From IMG/VR virus record IMGVR_UViG_3300032007_001727: a stretch of 64,000 nucleotides of DNA; one strand, given 5' to 3'. Below, piece by piece: positions 20,365-49,038 of the stretch; position 1 is the stretch's first letter; each line of letters opens with the position of its first letter. The stretch is from a virus. Lineage: Duplodnaviria; Caudoviricetes. The translations under genes and the position numbers were made by a program. Under the pieces are notes generated by a model, which saw nothing but the letters and a program-made list of their open reading frames with translations, made no database searches and was not told the DNA's origin.

Positions 20365-22815
20365 ATGAAAAAAATAACGTCAGAGGTAGTGAATACGTTC
20401 TTGAACGGCCATGACCCGATGGAACATATTATATCAATAGAGTGCGGCTACGACGAGGATAAGGTAAATATCATCTATGTTAACGACAACGGTGAGAAGC
20501 GCATCAGACAAGATGACTTCAAACCGTTTATTTGGCTTAAGCACAGTGCCGCAATCAGAATGTTTAACGGTGATAGGGCCAAACTCAGAATGGCCCTAAG
20601 GCACTATGGCATATCTATCAGAAGTCTGATAACCTCCAATGAAGGTGAAGAACCCAATGAAAGACTCTTGAACGGGTACAAATACTTGTTCTACGCCACT
20701 AGGCGAATGAGTTACATGGAATTTCAGAGGTTTTTCTCCGAGGCGGGGGTACCCCTCAGTGAAAGGAACAAGAAGGACGCACCAAAGCAGCAGAACAAGG
20801 AGTTTATGATGGTCACGCCGGTTGAACAGTACATGATTCAGACCGGTCATCGACTTTTCAAGGGATACGACTCATACGACTCGCTTGTCCGTTTCATATT
20901 CGACTTGGAGACCCAAGGACTTAATCCTAGAATCCATAGGATAGAGCAGATTGGTATTCATACGAACAAGGGTTTCGACAAGATAATATCCATAGAGGGA
21001 AACTCAAAGGAAGAGTTGGACAAAGCAGAGTTGGAGGGAATAAAGGAATTTTTAAGAATATTGTCAGAAATAAAACCGGACACGGTTGTCGGCCATAACT
21101 CAGAGAATTTCGACTTTGACTTCCTAATTGTCCGGTGTGAAGAACTTGGCGTGGATTTCTCAGAACTCTCACTGTATTATTTCAGACACCCCATTTATAA
21201 GAAAAAGAAGGAGGCGGTATTGAAATTGGGAGGTGAGGTCGAGTATTATTTCCCCACAATCATATGGGGACACAACGTCTTGGACTCCCTTCATTCTGCA
21301 AGAAGGGCACAAGCCATTGACTCAAACATGAAGTCATCGAACTTGAAATACATTACGAAATATCTGAACCTAAAGAAACCGAACCGTGTATATGTCCCGG
21401 GTGATAAAATCACCTCCACTTGGGCCGTCCGAGGAAAAGAATATGCATTTAACGATGAAGACGGTGATTGGTACAAGGTAACGGACACCAAGCCGTTGAA
21501 GGACGGGTATGAGTTGGTGAGCGGAAGATACATAGTTGAAAGGTACTTGTTGGATGACCTTTGGGAGACCGACAAGGTGGAAGAACGCCTTAACGAGTCA
21601 AACTTTCTTGTCGGCAAGATGCTTCCGACAACATTCTCAAGGGCTTGCACCATGGGAACCGCAGGAATTTGGAAACTCATAATGCTTGCTTGGTGCTATG
21701 AGAACAACTTGGCAATACCGGCATCCGCTCCGAACAGAAGGTTTGTCGGTGGGTTATCCCGTCTATTGAAGACCGGCTACGTTGACCGCATAGTCAAGTT
21801 GGACTACAACTCACTCTATCCTTCCGTAATCTTGACTTGGAATATCTCCACCCCCATTGACGTAATGAACGTCATGCTGTCTTTCTTGGAATATATCTTG
21901 ACACAACGCGAGAAATACAAGGAACTTAAGGCAGAGGCCGGAGAAAAGGCAGACGAACTCAATGACATTCTCTCAAATACCGTAAGCGAGGAAGAGATTA
22001 TAAGACTAAAGGAAGAGATTTCCCATTGGAAAGCAGAAAAAAGCGGCAATGATAAAAAACAATTACCCCTCAAGATACTAGCGAATTCATTTTTCGGAGG
22101 CTACGGTTCTCCTAGTGTTTTCCCGTTCGGGGACATAGTTGCGGCAGAGAAGACAACTTGTGTCAGCAGAATGGCCTTAAGGCTGATGATTTCACACTTC
22201 AAGTCCATAGGGTATGAGCCTATAGTGGGTGACTCATTCACAAGTGACACACCTCTCTTCGTAAAATATGACAGCACGGACGAAATAGACATAAAGCCGA
22301 TTTCGGAACTGTTCGAGAGGACGGAGACAGACGCTCTAGGAAGGGAGTACGACACCTCTAGAAAGGATTATTCCGTACTTTGCAGAAGCGGTTGGGTTCA
22401 CCCCAACTATCTATACCGCCATAAGACAGACAAGCCCTTGTACACGGTTTCAGAGGGTGACATGGAGATAACGGTCACGGAGGACCACAGCCTCTTCAAT
22501 GGCGAAGGTAAGGAGATAAAGCCAAGCGAGGTATGCAATGACACCATACTAGAGTATTACACCAAGGAAATCAAGTGTGCGGGCATAAAGTACGAGTGGA
22601 TGACCGAAGAAAGGGCAAGACTCTTCGGGAAAATGGTCAACGTGGGCGTGGCCGACCGTGTTGGAATGGCACTCCTCAACACCTCAGACATGGCGTGTGT
22701 TGAAGCCTTCTTGGACGAAGTAGAGAATCTAGACCGCCCAATCTCAAAGACTTGCCAAGCGGGCATACTGTATCTAAAAAACAAGGTAAAACATGGGAAA
22801 AAAGATAACGTTTAA
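20365..22815 (+). CDS. polB: DNA polymerase family B, N-terminal part, fused to split intein IntN
   Basis: ExoI FDLETQG, ExoII GHNSENFDF, ExoIII YLLDD, motif A LDYNSLYPS, motif B KILANSFFG; extein ends at ...EPIVGD, then intein S-FTSDTP. Confidence 0.92.
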   Translation: MKKITSEVVNTFLNGHDPMEHIISIECGYDEDKVNIIYVNDNGEKRIRQDDFKPFIWLKHSAAIRMFNGDRAKLRMALRHYGISIRSLITSNEGEEPNERLLNGYKYLFYATRRMSYMEFQRFFSEAGVPLSERNKKDAPKQQNKEFMMVTPVEQYMIQTGHRLFKGYDSYDSLVRFIFDLETQGLNPRIHRIEQIGIHTNKGFDKIISIEGNSKEELDKAELEGIKEFLRILSEIKPDTVVGHNSENFDFDFLIVRCEELGVDFSELSLYYFRHPIYKKKKEAVLKLGGEVEYYFPTIIWGHNVLDSLHSARRAQAIDSNMKSSNLKYITKYLNLKKPNRVYVPGDKITSTWAVRGKEYAFNDEDGDWYKVTDTKPLKDGYELVSGRYIVERYLLDDLWETDKVEERLNESNFLVGKMLPTTFSRACTMGTAGIWKLIMLAWCYENNLAIPASAPNRRFVGGLSRLLKTGYVDRIVKLDYNSLYPSVILTWNISTPIDVMNVMLSFLEYILTQREKYKELKAEAGEKADELNDILSNTVSEEEIIRLKEEISHWKAEKSGNDKKQLPLKILANSFFGGYGSPSVFPFGDIVAAEKTTCVSRMALRLMISHFKSIGYEPIVGDSFTSDTPLFVKYDSTDEIDIKPISELFERTETDALGREYDTSRKDYSVLCRSGWVHPNYLYRHKTDKPLYTVSEGDMEITVTEDHSLFNGEGKEIKPSEVCNDTILEYYTKEIKCAGIKYEWMTEERARLFGKMVNVGVADRVGMALLNTSDMACVEAFLDEVENLDRPISKTCQAGILYLKNKVKHGKKDNV
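22234..22812 (+). other. Split intein N-fragment (193 aa, Ser1)
   Basis: Block A SFTSDTPLFVK, block B TVTEDHSLF, inserted within the motif C GD|TD. Confidence 0.85.
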
Positions 22816-24424
22816 TGAATTTGTGGATAGGTCAAATGAAATACATAATTCAAAATACGCCTACCATGAAGACTCATATACCAATACACGTAATAAGACT
22901 AGGATAACTTGTCCAATTCACGGTGATTTCTATCAAACACCTAAGAATCATATGAATGGACAAGGTTGTCCTCAATGTGGAAAGGAAGTTGCTAGGATAT
23001 ATCATAAACATAATTATGAACCATTTATTAGGGCTGCAAAAGAAAGGTTTGGTGATGATTTTTCGTTCCCAAACATAGAAAGACAATATGTTAATAATAA
23101 AACTTATATTACGGTTAGATGCAATAAATGTGGATACGAATTCTCTAGACGGCCCAATGACTTGTTAAGTGATAAGTTTAATGAGTGTAAGAATTGCAAA
23201 CACATAGAAAAATTGGAAAATAGGAATAAATTAAAAATAAAGAAAACAAATAAAAGACATTCAGTAGGGAAAGAAGAATATATTAAGCGCTTCAGAGAAA
23301 AGTTCGGGGACAGCATTACTCCGTTTATGGACGAATACAAAAACACCCAAAGCGAAATACATTTCAAGTGCAACCAATGTGGGTACATCTTTAAGAGAAG
23401 ACCGCATAATTGCTTAGATAGTGACGGGTGTCCAAAATGTAAAAGAGTCAATAACCAAAAATATACCAATGACATTTTCATAGAGAAAGCAAGGGAAATT
23501 CATGGTGATAAATATGACTATTCAAAGGTAAATTATGTTAATAGTGATACTAAAGTGTGTGTAATTTGTCACGAAAAGGATAAATTTGGTGATGAACACG
23601 GTGAATTTTATGTTACACCGCATTCACATATTGGTAGTATGAGAAGTGGGTGTCCAAAATGCAGTGGAAAATTCAGAAAAGATACGGAATATTTCATAAA
23701 GGAGGCGAAATTGGTACATGGTGACAAGTATATATACGATGAGACCGAATATGTTTCTGCATTGAAAAATATTAAGGTTATATGTCCAACGCATGGTCCG
23801 TTTTCAATCAAACCGAATGACCATTTAAACGGTAAGGGCTGCAAGAAATGCGGGTATGAGACGGTCAGTGACAAATTAAGTATTAGTTTTGATGAGTTTA
23901 TCGAGCGGGCCACAGTAATACATAATAATAAATATGATTATTCGAAGGTAGACCTTAAAAATAGAGGCGAAAATGGCCGAATTTGCATTATTTGTCCCAT
24001 TCATGGTGAATTTTGGCAGTCATTGGGAGGTCATTTACGTGGTAATGGGTGTCCAAAATGCAAACAATCGCATTTGGAGAATGAAATTATGCGTTTCTTG
24101 GATGAAAAATCCATCAAATATGAGCCGCAGAAGCGATTTAGGTGGCTTGGAGGGCGTAAGAGTGTTGATTTTTTCCTACCGGACTATAATATTGCCATAG
24201 AATGCCAAGGAATTCAGCATTTTGAGGACACTTTCTTCGGTAAGGCTGAAGAAAAGATGAAAAATGACCTTTTAAAGAGAGAAATTTGTGAAAAAAATGG
24301 TATAAAAGTCTTGTACTACAGCAACTTAGGGATTGAGTACCCATACAGCGTCTTTGAAGACAAGGATTTGCTGCTGCAAGAGGTTTTTAAGTCTGATTTG
24401 ATTAAAATTTGTGAAGATGGATAA
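22793..24424 (+). CDS. Free-standing endonuclease (6 Zn-ribbon repeats plus PD-(D/E)XK/Vsr-like domain) between the intein halves
   Basis: VDFFLPDYNIAIECQGIQH; overlaps both polymerase half-genes. Confidence 0.85.
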   Translation: MGKKITFNEFVDRSNEIHNSKYAYHEDSYTNTRNKTRITCPIHGDFYQTPKNHMNGQGCPQCGKEVARIYHKHNYEPFIRAAKERFGDDFSFPNIERQYVNNKTYITVRCNKCGYEFSRRPNDLLSDKFNECKNCKHIEKLENRNKLKIKKTNKRHSVGKEEYIKRFREKFGDSITPFMDEYKNTQSEIHFKCNQCGYIFKRRPHNCLDSDGCPKCKRVNNQKYTNDIFIEKAREIHGDKYDYSKVNYVNSDTKVCVICHEKDKFGDEHGEFYVTPHSHIGSMRSGCPKCSGKFRKDTEYFIKEAKLVHGDKYIYDETEYVSALKNIKVICPTHGPFSIKPNDHLNGKGCKKCGYETVSDKLSISFDEFIERATVIHNNKYDYSKVDLKNRGENGRICIICPIHGEFWQSLGGHLRGNGCPKCKQSHLENEIMRFLDEKSIKYEPQKRFRWLGGRKSVDFFLPDYNIAIECQGIQHFEDTFFGKAEEKMKNDLLKREICEKNGIKVLYYSNLGIEYPYSVFEDKDLLLQEVFKSDLIKICEDG

Positions 24425-25979
24425 GATTACTGCTAGAAATGTTGGGGCAACGGACGATTATGTGTATGACATTAGTCTTGATGGCTCCGTTGTTAATGCC
24501 CTTGGGTTGAACATCGCCTCAAACACTGACGGTTTTAACTTTCAGATGCCAAAGGATGAGGATTTCCGCTACACGGACGAGCATCCGTACGTTAGCACCG
24601 GAGAAGGGCGAAATTCTGTGAAAGGAAAGGCTTACACGAAGGTTGATGCCGACGTTGCCGAGTTCGAGGACTTGTTCCTCAACAAGTCTTATAACGGTGG
24701 CGTGAACAAAATGGGTTTGGGAATAGATGAGTATTGTGACGCTTGCATTCAATTCGCTCGAAAGAACTATGCGGATTTAATGGCGGGCACCGGAAAAACT
24801 AAAAAGGTGGGTAATACGATTAAATCTAGGAAGATGAGTGGTTATCTTGAAAAGTTTATTGATAGTGGCATTGACTTGTTGTTAAGGGGTAACGGGTATG
24901 AGTTCTTGTTGAACTATTATGACTACATTGAGAAGATATATAACTATCAGATTCCGATTAAGGATATTGCCTCAAAGGGAAACATCAAGAAAAGCATCAA
25001 GGATTACATGGATGACTGTAAGACACTTACCAAGGCAGGGTCCAAGAAGGCAAGGCAAGCGTGGTATGAGTTGGTTATAAAGGAAGGTATAAACGTGAAC
25101 GTAAGCGACACCATATATTATATAAATACCGGTACAAGGAAGGGTCACCCCGACGTTAAGCGCGTTACGCACTACTTCTATTTCTTGGACGGGGAGAAGA
25201 AGGAAATCACAAAGGAAGTGGAGAAGTTGTATAAGACTTATTATAAGGAGTGTGGAGAACACGGGGTCGTGGCAAGGAAGAACCGGTTGGACGTTGCTAG
25301 GGAGAATTTCGGCGAAGGTGCGTTTGACGAGGATGAAATCATCTTAATGTGCAAATTGGTGCCCAACGAGATTCTTGACAAGGAGGAAGACGTGCTTTGC
25401 AGCGAGTATGAGGGCCTAGAGTATAACGTTGAGAGATACATTGATATGTTCAACAAGCGCATAACCCCGCTTTTGGTGTGTTTTCATCCGGATATCCGTG
25501 GAAAGATACTCATAACCAACCCAAAGGACAAGTTATTCTTCACTGAGGAAGAGGCTAGGTTGGTATGTGGTTATCCAAATAAGGAGGGCGACCAAGATAC
25601 GTATGAGGCACTGATGACACCGGAAAGAAAAGAGGTTGAATATTGGGTCTCAATAAATGAAGAGCCTCCGTTTGTGAAGGAGTGCGGGATTGATTGGGAT
25701 TCCATCGTTTCAGAGTATCACAAGACGGTTGAGGATGAAAACAACGAATTGTTCAAGAACGAGAATGAGAAATATTTGGAGGCGTTGTCAAAGATAACCG
25801 ATGATGAAATTGAAGAATTCGAGAACGACGGAAAGATACCGCAAGAGATTTCATCGCTTGTGACGCTTGGGTCTGACATGAGGTTCCGGTTCAAGAAAAT
25901 TCCGGAGAAGACACCGTCAACCGGCGGGTTTATCTTCGATGACCTCACGAAGAATCTTGTTGAACAATTTGAAGAATAA
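24417..25979 (+). CDS. polB: Split intein IntC (36 aa) fused to DNA polymerase family B, C-terminal part
   Basis: MDKITA...YVYDISLDG...GLNIASN|TDGFNF; continues with RKNYA and IKSRKM polB thumb motifs; splice junction at 24524/24525. Confidence 0.88.
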   Translation: MDKITARNVGATDDYVYDISLDGSVVNALGLNIASNTDGFNFQMPKDEDFRYTDEHPYVSTGEGRNSVKGKAYTKVDADVAEFEDLFLNKSYNGGVNKMGLGIDEYCDACIQFARKNYADLMAGTGKTKKVGNTIKSRKMSGYLEKFIDSGIDLLLRGNGYEFLLNYYDYIEKIYNYQIPIKDIASKGNIKKSIKDYMDDCKTLTKAGSKKARQAWYELVIKEGINVNVSDTIYYINTGTRKGHPDVKRVTHYFYFLDGEKKEITKEVEKLYKTYYKECGEHGVVARKNRLDVARENFGEGAFDEDEIILMCKLVPNEILDKEEDVLCSEYEGLEYNVERYIDMFNKRITPLLVCFHPDIRGKILITNPKDKLFFTEEEARLVCGYPNKEGDQDTYEALMTPERKEVEYWVSINEEPPFVKECGIDWDSIVSEYHKTVEDENNELFKNENEKYLEALSKITDDEIEEFENDGKIPQEISSLVTLGSDMRFRFKKIPEKTPSTGGFIFDDLTKNLVEQFEE

Positions 25980-25988
25980 GGAAAAAAG

Positions 25989-26023
25989 AAAGGTGACTAT
26001 TTAAATTGATAGTCACCTTTTTT
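25989..26023. terminator. Bidirectional terminator (AAAGGTGAC family)
   Basis: AAAGGTGACTAT...ATAGTCACCTTTTTT between convergent genes. Confidence 0.75.
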
Positions 26024-26034
26024 ATTGTTAAGTA

Positions 26035-27588
26035 TTATTGTTCAACCTTTGTCCAATTATACTTACCCAAGTAATAATCACCCGTTCCCATCCAAACATC
26101 ATAGCCGCTGCTACCGGTTGGAACTGTCAGAGTACCACCGGCCTTAATATTATAAAAAGTAAAATTTTGTATTGTTGGTGCAGTTACCGCAAGTGAGGTT
26201 ATTGCCGATAAACTAGAACAACTATTGAAAGCATTCTGACCAATGCTTGTAACACCACTTGGAATGTTTATACTTGATAAACTAGAACACATATAGAAAG
26301 CATAGGTACCCATACTTGTAACACCACTTGGTATTGTTATACTTGATAAACTAGTACAACTTTGGAAAGCGCTATTACCAATGCTTGTAACACTGTCCGG
26401 AATTGTTACGCTTGTTAAACTATGACAACTAGAGAAAGCATTAGCACCAATGGTTGTAATATCATTTGGTATAACAGTTGTCTTACAACCACCAACTAAA
26501 GTGTTTGTGTTTGTTTCAATAATTGCATTGCAATTGTTTCTTGAGTCATAGGTCGTGTTTGCAGCATCAACTGTTATGCTTGTTAAATTATAACAACCAC
26601 TGAGAATACCATTACCAATACTTGTAACACCACTTGGTATTGTTATACTTGATAAACTAGAACAACTATTGAAAGCACTACCACCAATGCTTGTAACACT
26701 GTCCGGAATTGTTACGCTTGTTAAGCCGGAACAACCATTGAAAGCGTTGGTACCAATACTTGTAACACTATCCGGAATTGTTACACTTGTTAAACCGGAA
26801 CATTGATAAAATGCATAATTACCAATACTTGTGATGTTATCTCCAATTATATATTCTTTCACTTGGGTACCAAAATAAGTTTTAATACTTGCAGAATACG
26901 AATAATTCTTTGAAACAATAGAATTACTATTGATTGTAACACTTGTTAAATGATAGCAATCAAAGAAAACATTGTCACCAATGTATGTGACACCACTTCC
27001 AATGGTAAAATCTGTCATACCATCACATGCGCGAAAAGCATATTGGCTAATACCGGTAACGCTGTCCGGAATTGTCATACTTGTTAAAGCCCAACATTGA
27101 TAGAAAGCATAATTACTAACGTTTGTAACACCACTACCAAGCGTACAAGTTTTCATCTGACTACATTCACTAAAAACATAACTACCAATTCTTGTAACAC
27201 TGTCCGGGATTACTAACTCCCTTATAGCGCATCCGAGGAAAGCGTAATCACCAATCCTTGTAACGCCGTCCGGAATTGTTACACTTGTTAAACTAGTACA
27301 GGCGCTGAAAGCCCTATTGCCAATGCTTGTACAAAGTGTACCGATTTCAGCACCGACACAAGTTGATTTGTATGAACTTGTCATTGCACTTGTAAGTTCT
27401 CCACTGCCCTCAATATCAACAACTTCACCGTTCTTAAGTGTTAACTTACAGAAGAATGGGGGGGGGGGAGCAGGGTTATAATACACATCACCCTCAGCAA
27501 CGCAAAGTGATACATTTGGCTTTGGATAGTCCGTGGCAACATACGCTGTATAATCAGCATGTGTTGCAAATTCTTTAACGTACTTCAT
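26035..27588 (-). CDS. BspA-type leucine-rich-repeat (LRR_5) protein; poly-C tract in frame
   Basis: Many 23-aa LTSVTIPDSVTSIGxxAFxxC repeats; C11 tract (G11 at 27458-27468 on +) encodes PPPP. Confidence 0.88.
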   Translation of the reverse strand: MKYVKEFATHADYTAYVATDYPKPNVSLCVAEGDVYYNPAPPPPFFCKLTLKNGEVVDIEGSGELTSAMTSSYKSTCVGAEIGTLCTSIGNRAFSACTSLTSVTIPDGVTRIGDYAFLGCAIRELVIPDSVTRIGSYVFSECSQMKTCTLGSGVTNVSNYAFYQCWALTSMTIPDSVTGISQYAFRACDGMTDFTIGSGVTYIGDNVFFDCYHLTSVTINSNSIVSKNYSYSASIKTYFGTQVKEYIIGDNITSIGNYAFYQCSGLTSVTIPDSVTSIGTNAFNGCSGLTSVTIPDSVTSIGGSAFNSCSSLSSITIPSGVTSIGNGILSGCYNLTSITVDAANTTYDSRNNCNAIIETNTNTLVGGCKTTVIPNDITTIGANAFSSCHSLTSVTIPDSVTSIGNSAFQSCTSLSSITIPSGVTSMGTYAFYMCSSLSSINIPSGVTSIGQNAFNSCSSLSAITSLAVTAPTIQNFTFYNIKAGGTLTVPTGSSGYDVWMGTGDYYLGKYNWTKVEQ

Positions 27589-27800
27589 AATTAATTAATA
27601 AAGATTTAAATTAAGTTATTTATTTCTCTTTATAAATACAGTTTACTTGTTTAAAATCTCGCATAAAAAAAAATAAATTTTATTTTTGTGTAGTTTTGCT
27701 CCGTATAAAATATTTATTGGTAATTATGGTGGAAAAATATAAACATATTAGACCATTGCTTCCTAAGAAAATTAAGTAATTACTAATTTAAAATAAAATT

Positions 27801-29831
27801 ATGGGACAAAGAATAAGACACCTAGAATATTATGGTTATGCCGACCAAAATGAGTACATTGGTTTTCCAAATGTTGATTTGAGTGACATTCGTGAGGTCA
27901 ACAAGGAACAAGACAAGGAAATCAGTGAGATTTCCGGTGCCACTAAGGATAAGGCTGATGTTGAAATGGTTGAACAACTCAGTGGCAAGGTCGAGACATT
28001 TGCTGACAGACAAGACGAAATCAATAAGTGGCTTGCAAAGGGCATCAAGAAGAATAAGCATAGGATAGAACTCTTGGAGGCTAGGGATACCGAAATAGTC
28101 GACAAGATTAATGAGGTTGCTGATAAGTTTGACCCGATATATGACGAGTTGGGCACACTATCCAATAACATTGACACAACCAATTCTAGACTTGATGAAC
28201 ACATTTCCTCAGAATCCGATTTTGAAGAAACTACCAATGAGAGGCTTGAGGCCCTTGAGAATCAGCACGAGGATAACATAACTAGAGAAGAGGCATATGC
28301 CACTTTCGCAAAGAAAGAGGATGTCTATACCAAGGATGAGGTAGATGACCTCATAGAAGGTATCGATGACAAGTATGCAACCAAGGATTGGGTCCTTGGG
28401 AGAGGATATATAACCGAGGAGGATGCAAATGCAAAGTATGCTAGCAAGGCTAGGCTTAACGCACTTGAAGACCGTGTAGGTGACATTCAGACAACGTTAT
28501 ATAATCAATATAACGCACTAAATGCCGACTTGTCGGAATTCAAGACCGTTACCAACTCTAGGATTGGCTCCTTGAACGAAAAGGTTAATACCTTGGAGAC
28601 AAAGTATGACAGAGAAATTGCCAACCTCCAAGAGGAAGATGCTGAATTAAGGGAAGATATTCAAGAGAACACGAATGCGATATATAACATCAACAACGTG
28701 GCACTCCCCAACAAGGCTGACAAGTCAGACTTGACGGTACTTTCATCTAGGGTTGACACACTCTCTACAAACTTGGCAAACAAGGTTGACAAGTCCGACT
28801 ATGAGAGGGACAAGGCTAGGTTCGGTGCTCAGTTGGATGCCTTGGACAACAGAAAGGCCGACAAGACCGCATTGAACGCATTGAGCGGTGCCATCGGTGA
28901 TGTTGCAGATGACCTTGCACAAGAGATTATCGACCGTCAGAACGGCGATATTGCCTTGGGTGAGAGAATCGACGGCGTGAACGAGGAAATCCGTGAGATT
29001 GAGATTGGTGACAGAGAAAGGGACATCAAGATATCCGGACTTGAGCGTGACTTGGCAAAGGAGATAAACGACCGCATCGAGGCAGATAACGCCATAATCG
29101 GAAGTCCTAGCGACAGAGAAGAGGATGCCACCATATACGGTGCAAAGAAATATGCCGACAAGGTGGCAAATAACGCACTCACACAAGCAAAGGCTTATAC
29201 GGACGTAAAGGACAGTGCCGTTAGGGACTATGTGGATGAGACTAGGGCCGAACTTGAGAGAGACATTACGGCAAAGGCTGACAAGGCTTATGTGAATGCG
29301 ATAAGAAATGAAATCGATGCCTCAGTTGATAGCAAGATAGCGGCAGAGAAGAGTAGGGCTGAAACTGCCGAGGCCGCACTTGAAGGCTCAGTGCTGCAAG
29401 AGACCATGAGGGCAACCGAGAGGGAGAGGATTATCTCTACCGCACTGACACATACTTCAAATATCGTAAAGGCACTTACTGATTGGGACGGTGATGACAG
29501 AGAAGACTATACCGACGAGGGTAATGGTATTATCGATGTAATGCACCGTGAGATACACGATATCGAGGAGACAATCAGTGCAATAACGCAAATCGGTGAA
29601 GGTATCAAGACTAGCAACAAGCATGAGGTCGGATTCGGTACCTATAACCAAACACATACCGGTATTGCAGATGCCGACAAGACTATGTTCTCAATAGGTA
29701 TCGGTACCTCCGAATTGGATAGGAAAAACGGCATAGAGATACGCAAGAACGGTGATATATACATGTGGGTTGAGGGTGAATACATAAGGATAAATAACTT
29801 TATCGGAATGTTGGTACACGAGACGTATTAA
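27801..29831 (+). CDS. Coiled-coil fibre protein with C-terminal trimeric-adhesin-like motif
   Basis: Heptad repeats; C-terminal GTYN...MFSIGIGTSELDRKNGIEIRKNGDIY. Confidence 0.55.
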   Translation: MGQRIRHLEYYGYADQNEYIGFPNVDLSDIREVNKEQDKEISEISGATKDKADVEMVEQLSGKVETFADRQDEINKWLAKGIKKNKHRIELLEARDTEIVDKINEVADKFDPIYDELGTLSNNIDTTNSRLDEHISSESDFEETTNERLEALENQHEDNITREEAYATFAKKEDVYTKDEVDDLIEGIDDKYATKDWVLGRGYITEEDANAKYASKARLNALEDRVGDIQTTLYNQYNALNADLSEFKTVTNSRIGSLNEKVNTLETKYDREIANLQEEDAELREDIQENTNAIYNINNVALPNKADKSDLTVLSSRVDTLSTNLANKVDKSDYERDKARFGAQLDALDNRKADKTALNALSGAIGDVADDLAQEIIDRQNGDIALGERIDGVNEEIREIEIGDRERDIKISGLERDLAKEINDRIEADNAIIGSPSDREEDATIYGAKKYADKVANNALTQAKAYTDVKDSAVRDYVDETRAELERDITAKADKAYVNAIRNEIDASVDSKIAAEKSRAETAEAALEGSVLQETMRATERERIISTALTHTSNIVKALTDWDGDDREDYTDEGNGIIDVMHREIHDIEETISAITQIGEGIKTSNKHEVGFGTYNQTHTGIADADKTMFSIGIGTSELDRKNGIEIRKNGDIYMWVEGEYIRINNFIGMLVHETY

Positions 29832-32264: not shown

Positions 32265-32900
32265 ATGATTATATTAATTGATAACGGTCACGGGTCAAAT
32301 ACGGAGAAGAACGGCAAGTTCTCCCCAAAATTGGATTCAACCGTACAAGTGGACGGAAAGTTTACAAACAACGGTAGGTTCAGAGAGTGGAAATATAACC
32401 GTGTAATAGCAAAGAAGGTGGTGCAAGAACTTAAGTCAAGCGGATATGACGCACGATTGGTTGTACCGGAGGACACGGACATATCTCTGTCTGAAAGAAT
32501 TAGGAGAATCAATACCATCTGCAATAAAAACGGTGCAAAGAACGTAATACTTGTCTCAATACACTCGAATGCTTGCGGAAACGGCTCATCTTGGATGCAA
32601 GCGAACGGATGGGAAGCCTATACCACTAAGGGTAAGACGAAGTCCGATGCATTGGCAGAATGTATCTATAACGAGGCTGAGAAGGAATTCAAGAACCGTA
32701 AAATAAGAAAGGACATGAGTGACGGTGACAAGGACAAGGAGAGTGATTTCTATATTATAAAGAAATCATATTGCCCTAGTGTATTGACTGAGAATTTTTT
32801 CTATGACAATAAGGATGACTTGAAGTATCTCACGTCTGATGAAGGCGTTGAATCCGTCGTTAGGGTACACGTAAATGGTATAAAGAAGGCGATTAAGTAA
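32265..32900 (+). CDS. N-acetylmuramoyl-L-alanine amidase (Amidase_3), probable endolysin
   Basis: ILIDNGHG, REWKYN, VSIHSNA, PSVLTENFF. Confidence 0.88.
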   Translation: MIILIDNGHGSNTEKNGKFSPKLDSTVQVDGKFTNNGRFREWKYNRVIAKKVVQELKSSGYDARLVVPEDTDISLSERIRRINTICNKNGAKNVILVSIHSNACGNGSSWMQANGWEAYTTKGKTKSDALAECIYNEAEKEFKNRKIRKDMSDGDKDKESDFYIIKKSYCPSVLTENFFYDNKDDLKYLTSDEGVESVVRVHVNGIKKAIK

Positions 32901-32977
32901 AAAAAAAAATCGTGACGATTTGAATTTTAATCATTTTCACGATATTTATTATTAAATATTTTGAAAGAAGAATTAAG

Positions 32978-33850: not shown

Positions 33851-33869
33851 ATGAAATAAAAAAAAAACT

Positions 33870-41100: not shown

Positions 41101-41628
41101 AGGAATTTCGCTCAGACGGACAACCAAGCATATCCTTGGTTCGCTCCGGCCGGTGTTGAACGCGGACAAGTTGATTGTGTTAGGGCAAAGTTCATCACAA
41201 AGTTGGCTGACGAGGATGTCCTCTATGACGGAAGAATCAACCCAATCAAGACCTTCGCACAAGACGGTCCCCGCATTTGGGGTCAGAAGAACCTCCAAAT
41301 CAACGAGTCGCAACTCAACCGTATCGCAGTACGTAGGCTGTTGCTCAGAATGAGAAAATTAATTGCAATCGCTTGCATTGGTCTCATCTTCGAGCCAAAC
41401 GACGCAACCGCAAGACAGTCCTTTATCTCGGCAGTTTCCCCAATATTGGAGAACATTAGAAGCAACCGTGGTATCTCCGACTATAGAATTGAGGTGAACG
41501 ACACCGTTGAGTCAAGGGAGAGAAGAGAACTTCCGGCAAAGATATACTTCAAACCATATAATGCACTTGAATATATCAGCATTGATTTTATTTTGACTCC
41601 GGAAGGGATATCATTTGATGATATTTAA
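38125..41628 (+). CDS. Tail sheath protein
   Basis: N-terminal VSPGIYTREID, GETQKGPAF; C-terminal PWFAPAGVERG, RINPI, IWGQKNL, LNRIAVRRLL. Confidence 0.92.
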   Translation: MADNARGIHVSPGIYTREIDMTYAVRSLGITTLGAVGETQKGPAFQPMDISNWREFQETFGGTSTEKFKGSQYPKYELPYIAKSYLTESEQLKVVRVLGLSGYNAGPAWLVTASLNGENKRAVAVIRSRGTYHPYNANSSGDTACTCEPTKYDTLKYDVGEVSGQMVSGKCQKLGYNMSALDIEEYIPLNSDGNECEGYGMSGGNGSWEISQTNRGRFKIVGITGEHANPTSPTKDSSDYFEYPVSLNPYDKEYILNVLGTKAYDGDAPVFVESLYDVALEQAIANGDVDRIDSGLTPFNAYFTADFCHHEPIYGIVEKPQSSLNRKYVGRRYLASKTATADGITCVAYDYSSNTPETYYTLWKSQDEERKSKAVNPPSLMAVQTAEFQKINSESAVVDTVKTTAETTWNDLGVKDAPNPSAETGYHFKLVGRSTKFVDAAFNAVQESMLVGQIYTVRQYTTQDGKRHYYYTYYSKKSVDEAFPSSAQTNVETVNYYGNLLNGGDKGNTDAGSTLVLNNADGLYYRMNSAKNDVTYVELDMNDYKSAYRYASTPWIVSNLKGDFNHIEMTKLFRFHTISDGDNANSEVKVSIENIRPDEGVFDVVVRKIDDVDESIVPLEKFGRCNMIPGDSNYIAFKIGSFDGVYESKSKFITVEVNETTAARTSVPAGFLGYPIPLYSGTPISGDPQTGVTFPTIMYNRFFDEDIKNRKQYFGLSSWVGVDIDNFMFKGTKAYINNPHFLSHGFHLDSRLDESARAVDSNELTVTVDGESGYTFDSVSTNARTQVLDQPPIIGKETEMYGSIYEYVNLRKFTVFFYGGFDGWDVYRDQRTNTDEFKMSQYRGFINQGSGEGYSFNKIMDPEALALNQNGITSDWYAYLSGIRQFANPEATDINVFCTPGIDYVNQKLLVEEAIEMIEEERADSIYVITTPDKPSGAGDYVDEMYTPDDAVYNLEDTEIDSNYSCTYYPWVKYFDVENNQYIFLPPTKDAVRNFAQTDNQAYPWFAPAGVERGQVDCVRAKFITKLADEDVLYDGRINPIKTFAQDGPRIWGQKNLQINESQLNRIAVRRLLLRMRKLIAIACIGLIFEPNDATARQSFISAVSPILENIRSNRGISDYRIEVNDTVESRERRELPAKIYFKPYNALEYISIDFILTPEGISFDDI

Positions 41629-41654
41629 AAAAAAAAAACTAAAATCTAATATTT

Positions 41655-42644: not shown

Positions 42645-43826
42645 TCAAATATTTTTTAAAAATTGAGTTAAATCTTCAAGATTGAAAAACATATTATTGT
42701 CATTATAAAGGCTTGATTCCAATGCATATTTCTTGAATTCAGCCGGAATATAGTAGATTAGTTGAATTGAGTTCTCCATACTGAGCCTATTCTTAACTGT
42801 GTCTCTGTGGATGGTTGAAGATACCATCTGTTCATCATAAATTCCACCGCTGAAGAAGTGTTGCTGACCTTGACATTCAATTGCAAGACTTAAACTTGGA
42901 ATGAATACGTCATATTTCATCTTATAGTTTGTCAAATCATTCTTAAGCCAATCAAAACTGACTTGTCTATCAAATGAAATGTTCTTTTCTTTCAGAAATA
43001 AACATAATTTTTCCTCCAATTTGCTAGTTGAACATCTTGGGCATCCGCTTTTATTATATAAATGATTAAACGGCTTCACTTTAAAGTCACCGTGAATGGG
43101 ACAAGTGATAATAACGTCGGTTTTATTGTTAATGTAATCTACTTTTGAATAATCGTACTTGTTTCCGTGTATTTTTTTAGCCTTTTCAATGAAAGTGTCT
43201 GAGTCGAGGGATAAAGTCTTGGCAACCTTGTTAAGGCCGCAAAGCGGACATCCGTTACCACTTAGATGATAACTAGCCTTTTGTTTGAACTCTCCGTGTT
43301 GCGGGCATATAATAACAAGAGGTTCGAACGGCGATTTATATTCACTCCTTGAATAGTCATACTTGTTCCCATGAACCGTTTTGGCCTTCTTGATGAAGTC
43401 ATCAGTGGTCATTACAGTGTGTGTTTTTTCAATTCCACACCTAGGGCATCCCTTACCTTGCAAGTGTACGTTAGGTTTTTGTTCAAATTCCCCGTGCTTG
43501 GGACAAATTATCTTGACCAAAGTATTAGTGTTAACATATTCAACCATTGAATAGTCATATTTGTCCCCATGTACACCATTAGCCTTCTTGATGAACGTTT
43601 CAGTTGTATCGGAACAAAGCCTTTTACCCGCTTCCGTCTTGCATTTTGGACAACCTTGTCCGCGAAGGTGGGCATTTGGTCTTTGTTTGAACTCTCCGTG
43701 TTCCGGACATATAATATCTACAAGCGTTTGACTATTCACATATTCAACCTTGGAGTAGTCATACTTGTTTTTATGTTTTTCACTTGCTTTTGCGATAAAT
43801 TCTTCTTTTGTCATCTTTTTTCCCAT
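42645..43826 (-). CDS. Free-standing endonuclease (4 Zn-ribbon repeats plus PD-(D/E)XK domain)
   Basis: YDVFIPSLSLAIECQGQQH; likely start MGKKMTKEEF at 43826. Confidence 0.8.
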   Translation of the reverse strand: MGKKMTKEEFIAKASEKHKNKYDYSKVEYVNSQTLVDIICPEHGEFKQRPNAHLRGQGCPKCKTEAGKRLCSDTTETFIKKANGVHGDKYDYSMVEYVNTNTLVKIICPKHGEFEQKPNVHLQGKGCPRCGIEKTHTVMTTDDFIKKAKTVHGNKYDYSRSEYKSPFEPLVIICPQHGEFKQKASYHLSGNGCPLCGLNKVAKTLSLDSDTFIEKAKKIHGNKYDYSKVDYINNKTDVIITCPIHGDFKVKPFNHLYNKSGCPRCSTSKLEEKLCLFLKEKNISFDRQVSFDWLKNDLTNYKMKYDVFIPSLSLAIECQGQQHFFSGGIYDEQMVSSTIHRDTVKNRLSMENSIQLIYYIPAEFKKYALESSLYNDNNMFFNLEDLTQFLKNI

Positions 43827-43918
43827 AAAAAAATGTTTATCTGCATAAAATATACAGATAAACATTTAAAAATGCAAGAAAAACTAAACAAATTTTGTAA
43901 AAAACAGACAAAAAAAGT

Positions 43919-46724: not shown

Positions 46725-47864
46725 ATGTCATACGGTAGGGAACAAGTGATTGAAATGTGCAGACAAGTACATGGAAATAAGTACGACTATTCAATAACAA
46801 ACGATTGCAGAAATAAATTGGACAAAATTAAGTATGTTTGTCCGATTCACGGTGTTGTCGAACAAATTTTCAATAATCACTTGCAAGGTAAAGGATGTCC
46901 AAAGTGTGCAACTGAAAGCATGAGAGAGAAAAAGACACCAACAAAAGAAGAATTTCTAAGTAAGGCTGAAAAGGTTCATAATTTAAGTGAATATGATTGG
47001 AGTGAATTTAATCTGCTAAATAGGGACAGTAAGGGAAGAGTTCAATTTTGTTGTAGAAAACATGGAAAATATTTTGATTGGCCTTCAAATTTCTTAAAAG
47101 GTCACGGTTGCCACATTTGTTACGGAAAACGAAAGAATGATGAAGAAGTCAAGGAAGAATTGCTGAGATTACATCCTAAATTGGATTTTTCAGAGGCAAA
47201 TTACTCCGAGAAGGATTCTCTAGGCAGATTGAAGGTTTTGTGCCCAAAACACGGGGAACAAAAGATAACATATTGGAACCTAAGAAACGGGCAAGGATGT
47301 TATTGGTGCGGCAGGGAGGCAACTGCCATTAAAAACACAATGACAAATGAAGAATTTATCAATAAGGCAACCAAGATATTTGGTGAGGATTATACTTATG
47401 AACGTCTTGATATGTTTAATAGGGATGAAAATGGTAAGGTTACAATAACTTGTCCCATTCATGGCGATTTTAAGGTTCTCCCGGGTAATTTTTTGAACGG
47501 TGTCGGTTGCCCCGTGTGTTCTGAAAGTAGTCTTGAAGGTGAAATTAGAAGATTTTTGAAAGAAAATGCTGTTATTTTTGAAAGACAGAAGAGATTTGAT
47601 TGGTTGGGAAGGCAAAGTTTGGATTTTTATTTGCCGGAATATAACGTAGCAATTGAGTGTCAAGGTGGGCAGCATTTCAAGTCGGTCGGAAAGTTTGGTG
47701 GCGATAAAACTTTTAAGAGAGTTGTTGAACTAGACGAGAGGAAAAGGGTTCTTTGCGGGGAAAACGGCGTTAGGTTGCTGTATTATTCAAACGAGGCAAT
47801 GGATTTTCCGTATGAGGTGTGTACGGACAAGGAAGAATTGCTGAAAGAAATAAGGGGAGAATAA
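46725..47864 (+). CDS. Free-standing endonuclease (4 Zn-ribbon repeats plus PD-(D/E)XK domain)
   Basis: LDFYLPEYNVAIECQGGQH; 3' end similar at DNA level to 44558..45469. Confidence 0.8.
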   Translation: MSYGREQVIEMCRQVHGNKYDYSITNDCRNKLDKIKYVCPIHGVVEQIFNNHLQGKGCPKCATESMREKKTPTKEEFLSKAEKVHNLSEYDWSEFNLLNRDSKGRVQFCCRKHGKYFDWPSNFLKGHGCHICYGKRKNDEEVKEELLRLHPKLDFSEANYSEKDSLGRLKVLCPKHGEQKITYWNLRNGQGCYWCGREATAIKNTMTNEEFINKATKIFGEDYTYERLDMFNRDENGKVTITCPIHGDFKVLPGNFLNGVGCPVCSESSLEGEIRRFLKENAVIFERQKRFDWLGRQSLDFYLPEYNVAIECQGGQHFKSVGKFGGDKTFKRVVELDERKRVLCGENGVRLLYYSNEAMDFPYEVCTDKEELLKEIRGE

Positions 47865-48225: not shown

Positions 48226-48387
48226 ATAATAAAACGTTTTACTATGTATAAATATTATTGATTTTCTTTTTGTTTCTCAAAATATGCGCTAACCAATTTT
48301 TTCTATAAATATCTTTGAATTTTGGTTTGGCCAATGATATTTATAAAGAAAATAACTTAATTAAAATCTTTAAAAAACAAATAATTT

Positions 48388-49001
48388 ATGAAGTACGTTA
48401 AAGAATTTGCAACTGCTGCCGATTATACAGCATATGTTGCCACAGACTACCCAAAGCCAAACGTAAGTTACGTCGTGGCCGATGGTGCTATGCACTACAA
48501 TTCAATTTTACCCCCCCCCCATTCTTCTGTAAACTAACACTTGAGAATGGTTCCGTTGTCGAAATTGAAGGCAGTGGGGAACTTACAAGAGCAATGATAA
48601 GCGGTTACAGTGCAACTTGTGTCAGTGCTGAAATCGGTGAACTTTGCACAAGTATTGGTCAAAGTGCTTTTATGGATTGTTTTGCTATGACAACTTGTAC
48701 CATTGGCAGTGGTGTTACAAGCATTGGTAATTCGGCTTTCGCCGGTTGTTCTAGTTTATCAAGCATAACAATACCAAATGGTGTTACAAGCATTGGTGCT
48801 AGTGCTTTCAATAGTTGCACTAGTTTAACAGCAATAACCTCGCTTGCCACAACAGCACCAACAATAACTAATTCTACTTTCAGAAATGTTAAGAGAGAAG
48901 GTACTCTCTATGTTCCAACTAGTAGTAGCGGCTATGATGTTTGGATGGGAAGTCGTGATTATTACTTAGGTAAGTATAATTGGACAAAGGTCGAACAATA
49001 A
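48388..49001 (+). pseudogene. BspA-type LRR gene, paralog of 26035..27588, frameshifted at a C10 tract (candidate phase-OFF allele)
   Basis: ATG at 48388 gives MKYVKEFATAADYTAYVATDYPKPNVS...; C10 at 48511-48520 shifts into TAA. One more C restores PPPPFFCKLTL... in frame with 48594..49001 (204 aa), ending YYLGKYNWTKVEQ like the paralog. Confidence 0.85.
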
Positions 49002-49008
49002 CAATAAT

Positions 49009-49038
49009 AAAAAAGGTGACTCAAATGAGTCACCTTTC
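49009..49038. terminator. Bidirectional terminator (AAAGGTGAC family)
   Basis: AAAAAGGTGACTCA-AA-TGAGTCACCTTTC. Confidence 0.75.

Follow-up and report, generated by a model that had tools for sequence, protein, structure and literature searches.

Introduction

What do two long C runs, lying at the same joint of two paralogous genes, do in the genome of a large phage? The question is raised by a 64-kb window (the whole stretch of DNA analysed here, 64,000 nucleotides) from an uncultured rumen phage of ~366 kb, a lytic-type myovirus. Two LRR genes in this window, here gene A and gene B, each carry a poly-C tract just behind a common N-terminal module; in one the tract leaves the gene open and in the other it leads to an early stop. 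A preliminary description of this DNA read the arrangement as a stochastic toggle between two LRR proteins, with slippage at the level of transcription or translation as an alternative. Here we weigh these readings, along with those of decay and of artefact, against the anatomy of the two genes, the composition of the window, and the states of the corresponding proteins in close and distant relatives. As set out below, we consider it likely that these genes belong to a multigene LRR family under DNA-level phase variation by slipped-strand mispairing, with gene A ON and gene B OFF in this genome.

The phage and the surroundings of the LRR genes

Among the genes of the window are those for a long tail-sheath protein, a baseplate-hub-like protein, a family-B DNA polymerase and several HNH homing endonucleases; tRNA genes were sought in the window and none was found. 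The tail sheath shares only ~30% identity with its counterparts in T4-like and other large myoviruses, and both it and the baseplate-hub gene sit elsewhere in the window than the LRR cassettes. A blastn search of both cassettes against 50,697 phage records gave a single weak LRR match to A and none to B, and neither the exact tract pattern nor a degenerate pattern of the gene start matched anything in IMG/VR.

Some further features of the neighborhood were seen in passing. Three paralogous HNH/homing endonuclease genes (phrog_559/681) are present in the window, at 22793-24424, at 42645-43865 on the minus strand, and at 46725-47864, one of which immediately precedes the gene B cassette. In the region 20365-25979, the family-B DNA polymerase ORF (816 aa) covers only the first 175 of the 453 positions of the polymerase-domain profile, and is followed by the endonuclease ORF at 22793-24424 and then by a 522-aa ORF without a family match; the polymerase gene may thus have been split by a mobile endonuclease. 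The 676-aa neighbor of gene A (27801-29831) likewise has no family match and appears by eye to be highly charged and repetitive, possibly fiber-like.

Two cassettes with a homopolymer at a shared joint

Genes A and B are isolated cassettes, each antisense to its neighbors, and their elements follow in the same order: an upstream block common to the two genes comes first, then a 38-residue head; the C run next encodes a proline linker, beyond which lie a TpLRR body, a C-cap that the two also share, and a terminator (Table 1). The pattern of the upstream block is matched just twice in the 64-kb window, before A and before B, as against 0.04 matches expected. The shared N-terminal module noted in the preliminary description is real, for the two proteins are 77% identical over their first 44 residues (and 70% over the C-terminal 125). 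On the LRR_5 profile (PF13306), for which the curated cut-off is 27.7 bits, gene A scores 409 bits (E 2e-124) and the body of gene B 73 bits (E 2e-20), both exceeding that threshold.

Table 1. Coordinates of the elements of the two LRR cassettes within the 64-kb window.
Feature	Positions	Strand	Description and basis
Gene A, ON copy	26035..27588	-	517-aa BspA/TpLRR-type protein; ORF, LRR_5, AF2 model, Foldseek
C11 tract of gene A (G11 on + strand)	27458..27468	-	Codons 41-44 (PPPP), in frame
Upstream block (promoter/5' leader) of gene A	27609..27638	-	TATTTATAAAGA...TTAATT, continues to ATG
Terminator-like hairpin 3' of gene A	25989..26020	-	AAAGGTGACT...AGTCACCTTT, then T run; stem homologous to that of gene B
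Gene B, OFF copy	48388..48537	+	49-codon stub: head module, LPPP, HSSVN, stop
C10 tract of gene B	48511..48520	+	Codons 42-45; C11 or C8 would restore the frame
Gene B LRR body and C-cap	48522..49001	+	-1 frame, 159 aa, stop-free
Upstream block of gene B, conserved	48338..48367	+	Alignment with gene A block; pattern search
Terminator-like hairpin 3' of gene B	49012..49037	+	Stem homologous to that of gene A

The central claim of the preliminary description, namely that the tracts occupy matching positions and leave one gene in frame and the other with a stop, was confirmed by reading both stretches. The length of the tract sets the frame. With C11 the codons of the run in gene A are APPPPFFCKLTL, the wider in-frame reading being ...YYNPAPPPPFFCKLTL..., and translation continues to 517 residues. 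With C10 the 0 frame of gene B reads ...HYNSILPPPHSSVN, so as to give LPPPHSSVN and a TAA at 48535-48537; the stub is 49 codons long and is followed by an open LRR frame. That this downstream frame is free of lesions, as had been claimed, also holds: 48522-49001 is open throughout and is the stretch that gives the E-value of 2e-20 with LRR_5.

These observations bear on two competing accounts. The first takes the tract as a mutational hot spot with no switching function, such that gene B would be a recently killed paralogue and the truncated relatives described below would reflect the erosion of a redundant family. Gene B is indeed the shortest member of the family, with a single LRR_5 stretch, and the family is large and hence probably redundant. 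However, the frameshift is its only lesion: nothing is amiss in the upstream block, the start codon, the 159-codon body, the cap or the terminator, and over ~160 codons no second lesion has accumulated, which speaks against decay.

The second account places the event in the RNA: by polymerase slippage, or by a -1 ribosomal shift on C CCC CCC, a C10 allele would yield both a stub and a full protein, and gene B would not truly be OFF. Transcriptional slippage is known to occur at long homopolymers, and, as read from the sequence, LPPPPFFCKLTL is exactly what a -1 shift on the run would produce. Against this, the RNA downstream of the run folds no better than shuffled sequences (z -0.12 and +0.17 over 80 nt), and the only hairpin begins inside the run, leaving no spacer. 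Of the features that mark programmed -1 frameshifting, no stimulatory structure 5-9 nt past the run was found, nor is an out-of-frame state fixed among the orthologues of gene A, as described below.

Purity and rarity of the tracts

In a census of homopolymers, no stretch of six or more G or C turned up in the window apart from the tracts of A and B, which upholds the earlier remark that no other long G/C homopolymers are present; the description of the window as AT-rich holds only moderately, its G+C content being 40%. Under a first-order Markov model, 0.027 G/C runs of at least 10 are expected and two are observed, whereas ~10 runs of 6-9 are expected and none is observed. By comparison, runs of 6-8 are frequent for A and for T, with 52 of each. 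Since about ten G/C runs of six or more would be expected and none is seen other than the two tracts, short G/C runs are avoided, and beyond the LRR genes the genome seems to shun slippery runs of G or C. Among the A runs, the longest (A9-A12), at 27665-27673, 32899-32909, 33858-33867 and 41627-41638, lie at gene ends or in intergenic regions and none is within a coding region.

The codons of the tracts are likewise at odds with the habits of the genome. CCC is the rarest of its proline codons, at 38 of 439 (8.7%) across the 31 long ORFs of the window, and the tracts occupy homologous codons of two paralogues in which 35% of the codons for conserved residues differ. Their purity has thus been kept in both A and B against codon and composition bias. 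A hot spot in a decaying gene would not readily account for tracts that remain pure in two paralogues of this divergence, nor for the lack of runs of 6-9, ~10 of which were expected, in a genome that otherwise avoids them.

The proline run as a linker

To place the run in the protein, we examined an AF2 model of residues 1-200 of gene A, built from a 33-row alignment with a mean pLDDT of 95.6. In it, residues 1-38 form a small strand-helix-strand-strand module, residues 39-46 are coil, and the solenoid then begins; the proline run is this coil, which joins the head module to the first LRR strand. As the coil at residues 39-46 coincides with the proline run, the C run is predicted to encode a linker. 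Foldseek matched the solenoid to 6mlx (TpLRR, TM 0.64), 4h09, PcpA (4cp6) and LRR surface proteins of gut bacteria. The head module had no family match in profile searches, and a search of the ESM Atlas with it returned just short, non-significant structural look-alikes. The LRR products are probably binding modules, either on the virion surface or acting within the host.

ON and OFF states in closely related genomes

Protein searches recovered the proteins of the window on contigs of 366,743 and 366,366 bases, and these close relatives allow the states of the family to be followed beyond the two copies in hand. If gene A lost one C, its predicted product would be a 48-residue stub ending APPPHSSVS. 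This very stub is recorded letter for letter (P0158), and the one JGI contig on which it lies has 53,754 bases. The neighbor of gene A (27801-29831) has as its cluster representative P0163, which is identical to the window's version at 674 of 676 residues and comes from one JGI contig, again of 53,754 bases; P0158 and P0163 are presumably adjacent, each having one JGI contig of that size. Gene A is ON in the window and in P0001, on the 366,366-base contig, and OFF in P0158. Based on these protein look-ups, from which the tract length in the DNA is deduced, strains with 99.7% identity in the neighboring gene differ by one C in the tract of gene A.

This pair of states weighs on the alternatives. 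The preliminary description had taken a lack of length variation among homologues as part of an outcome that would speak against a switch; instead, P0158 has the sequence predicted for gene A one C shorter, and other stubs of the clade also end after the proline run. The difference between ON and OFF in strains 99.7% identical next door is hard to reconcile with slow erosion, and the occurrence of gene A both in frame (the window and P0001) and out of frame (P0158) in near-identical strains speaks against recoding from a fixed frame.

Further members of the family show a comparable pattern. The 366,743-base contig encodes paralogues that share the head module and are ON; they have 3, 3, 5 and 6 prolines (P0002, P0067, P0032 and P0157, respectively), a range to be expected if, as proposed, in-frame steps of three are tolerated. 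Alongside these, stubs of 45-51 residues end just past the proline run: P0155 (gene B), P0156, P0160, P0161 and P0167-P0172, so that, besides P0158, at least 10 such stubs of the clade end just after it. The tails of the stubs, PPPH.. in some and PPPLLL/PPPIL.. in others, represent two or more wrong frames, and hence one programmed shift could not restore every stub. From the protein records we infer that poly-C also lies behind the proline runs outside the window. Protein evidence points to at least 12 such LRR genes in the genome; thus, while the on/off anatomy in the original proposal of a toggle between two LRR genes stands, the extent of the family was understated there.

The recoding alternative, which the preliminary description had put beside its toggle, is thereby weakened as a purely RNA-level process: there is no downstream stimulator, and gene A occurs in and out of frame. 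We regard it as quite improbable, even as RNA slippage may add leakiness on top of DNA switching.

A last alternative is that the OFF state of gene B is an artefact of assembly or sequencing, its true tract being a miscalled C11. Homopolymers of 10-11 are error-prone on several platforms. Nevertheless, the exact 49-aa stub of gene B (P0155) is found on two different contigs, as is the 135-aa downstream ORF; the coding regions of the window have no split genes, and the A9-A12 runs are at gene ends or intergenic; and many paralogues are broken in the same way and only at this joint. Hence, we consider such an error very improbable.

No ON allele of gene B turned up among the protein records searched, B being OFF in every record found, and this is a point in favor of decay. 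Weighed with its intact cassette, the purity of the tracts, the avoidance of other G/C runs and the two states of gene A, we nonetheless think decay unlikely. No protein record matched the stubs predicted for C9, C12 and C13 alleles of A or for a C12 allele of B, and a product running from M69 to the end of gene A was likewise absent from the records.

Two observations on gene A itself may be added here. In P0001 it encodes 369 aa, identical to the window's version except for the clean loss of residues 314-461; this 148-residue deletion lies between two copies of the repeat ...AFNSCSSLS and reflects either repeat-mediated recombination altering the number of LRRs or an assembly collapse. Separately, the 517-aa product is missing from a collection of 15 billion proteins, where its neighbors are present on the 366,743-base contig, and is found letter for letter in the ESM Atlas.

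Distant homologues and the origin of the tract

More distant relatives were collected with a metagenome scan using a profile of the head plus the joint, which returned 52 loci, the contigs of 366,743, 366,366 and 53,754 bp not being among them; the relatives come from rumen-type metagenomes. At 50 distinct homologous junctions there are 0-3 prolines before CKLTL, encoded by mixed codons and without a long C run: of 103 proline codons, 51 are CCA, 36 CCT, 13 CCG and 3 CCC, and the longest C run is of 5. Junctions with mixed proline codons include loci on other contigs of 387-412 kb. Given mixed codons and the lack of a C run in these distant homologues, the tract is particular to this phage clade. 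Judging from the junction sequences, the proline-containing linker is old in the family and the homopolymer is a derived feature of the clade. Mixed proline codons in homologues had been named at the outset, together with a lack of length variation, as a result that would count against a switch. Mixed codons do hold for the 50 distant junctions, but they speak to the origin of the tract and not against its instability, nor do they show it to be an error.

Several of the distant loci have their own peculiarities. On a rumen contig of 120 kb, a related LRR gene (L047:2480-2530) is out of frame at the same joint; its lesion is a base missing in CCATTTTT(C)TGC, which is not a C run, and it may be a pseudogene or an error. 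At three further loci (L043:2450-2540, L046:3200-3280 and L052:170-250), the C-cap (...YYLGKYNWT..) runs directly into the next (F/G)FCKLTL start with no head module between them. LRR units that are fused or in tandem are also present among the relatives. A G8 run in L010 was entertained as a related tract and rejected, as it lies in an unrelated stretch without a sizeable ORF.

Proposed mechanism

Taken together, the sequences present the features of a simple-sequence-repeat contingency locus: a pure intragenic repeat, switching of the frame, a difference between strains, and retention against bias. We advance the following as the likely mechanism. The run of C10-C11 would act as the contingency locus, encoding the proline linker between the 38-residue head and the TpLRR body. 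Slipped-strand mispairing during replication of the phage DNA would add or remove a C. A gain or loss of three would change only the number of prolines in the linker, which would be tolerated, as the 3 to 6 prolines among paralogues suggest. Any other change in length would end translation within ~9 codons, silencing the gene in a heritable but reversible fashion. With the other paralogues behaving in the same way, progeny would carry different sets of LRR proteins. That switching is frequent and reversible, and that it confers any benefit, we infer from this anatomy.

Comparison with known phase-variable systems

Phase variation at repeats has precedents in phages as well as in bacteria. Fletchervirus phages of Campylobacter have hypermutable polyG tracts with phase-variable expression (Sorensen 2021, cited in PMC10579305, PMC10877375 and PMC12823448). 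As far as these citing papers describe them, they resemble the present case in being lytic-type myoviruses with a G/C homopolymer inside phage genes and progeny of diverse phenotypes. The present case differs from what is so described in that the tract lies at one conserved linker of a dispersed BspA/TpLRR family, in a rumen phage of ~366 kb, and is known from sequence. The coliphages T2 and T4 have contingency loci, simple repeats at which the frame shifts reversibly (Gomez, Barrick, Waters 2025, bioRxiv 10.1101/2025.10.21.683753). As proposed for the present phage, frameshifts at repeats within phage genes are there a form of bet-hedging, the switched genes of T2/T4 being non-essential accessory ones. 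However, the T2/T4 repeats are short (6+ bases), number 100-plus per genome, occur in all gene classes, and are reported to be under-represented in tail-fiber and other infection genes (bioRxiv 10.1101/2025.10.21.683753), whereas the runs here are long (10-11), confined to one gene family, and set in a window from which G/C runs are otherwise absent.

Among bacteria, Candidatus Mycoplasma girerdii has a family of BspA-like surface proteins switched by SSRs (Costello et al. 2017, PMC5476646). The likeness is close: both are BspA-like LRR multigene families with copies turned ON or OFF by repeat-length frameshifts, and many of the girerdii reference copies are OFF. That system is bacterial, relies mostly on dinucleotide repeats and is documented by metagenomic read counts; the one described here is viral, uses poly-C and is known from consensus sequence and proteins.

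In its combinatorial logic, the family is akin to Neisseria opa, where ~12 dispersed paralogues are each switched independently by a repeat in the 5' coding region, giving rise to combinatorial repertoires. The opa repeat is a CTCTT pentamer in the signal-peptide region of a bacterial outer-membrane adhesin, and opa is not homologous to the phage LRR genes. Phase variation itself is already known; what would be new here is the gating by poly-C of a dispersed LRR family in a megaphage.

Implications

More tentatively, and with a good deal less confidence than we place in the switch itself, one may envisage a possible wider system. Here, ~12 independently switching LRR binding proteins would share a head that docks at a common site on the virion, such that the particles of each burst would differ in their sets of adhesins and thereby gain a wider host range or binding to particles or mucus in the rumen. 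Recombination among LRR repeats, of which the 148-residue deletion might be an instance, would provide a second layer, and the whole would be a viral counterpart of contingency families like opa.

Homopolymer phase variation has been proven experimentally in only a few cultured phages. If the DNA-level switch proposed here is true, a whole family of binding proteins would be gated in an uncultured rumen megaphage. For annotation, it would mean that LRR genes found split at G/C runs in phage metagenome assemblies are to be read as switch states rather than as pseudogenes or errors. For the biology of these viruses, it would mean that giant phages may hedge their bets combinatorially without recourse to diversity-generating retroelements or invertases.
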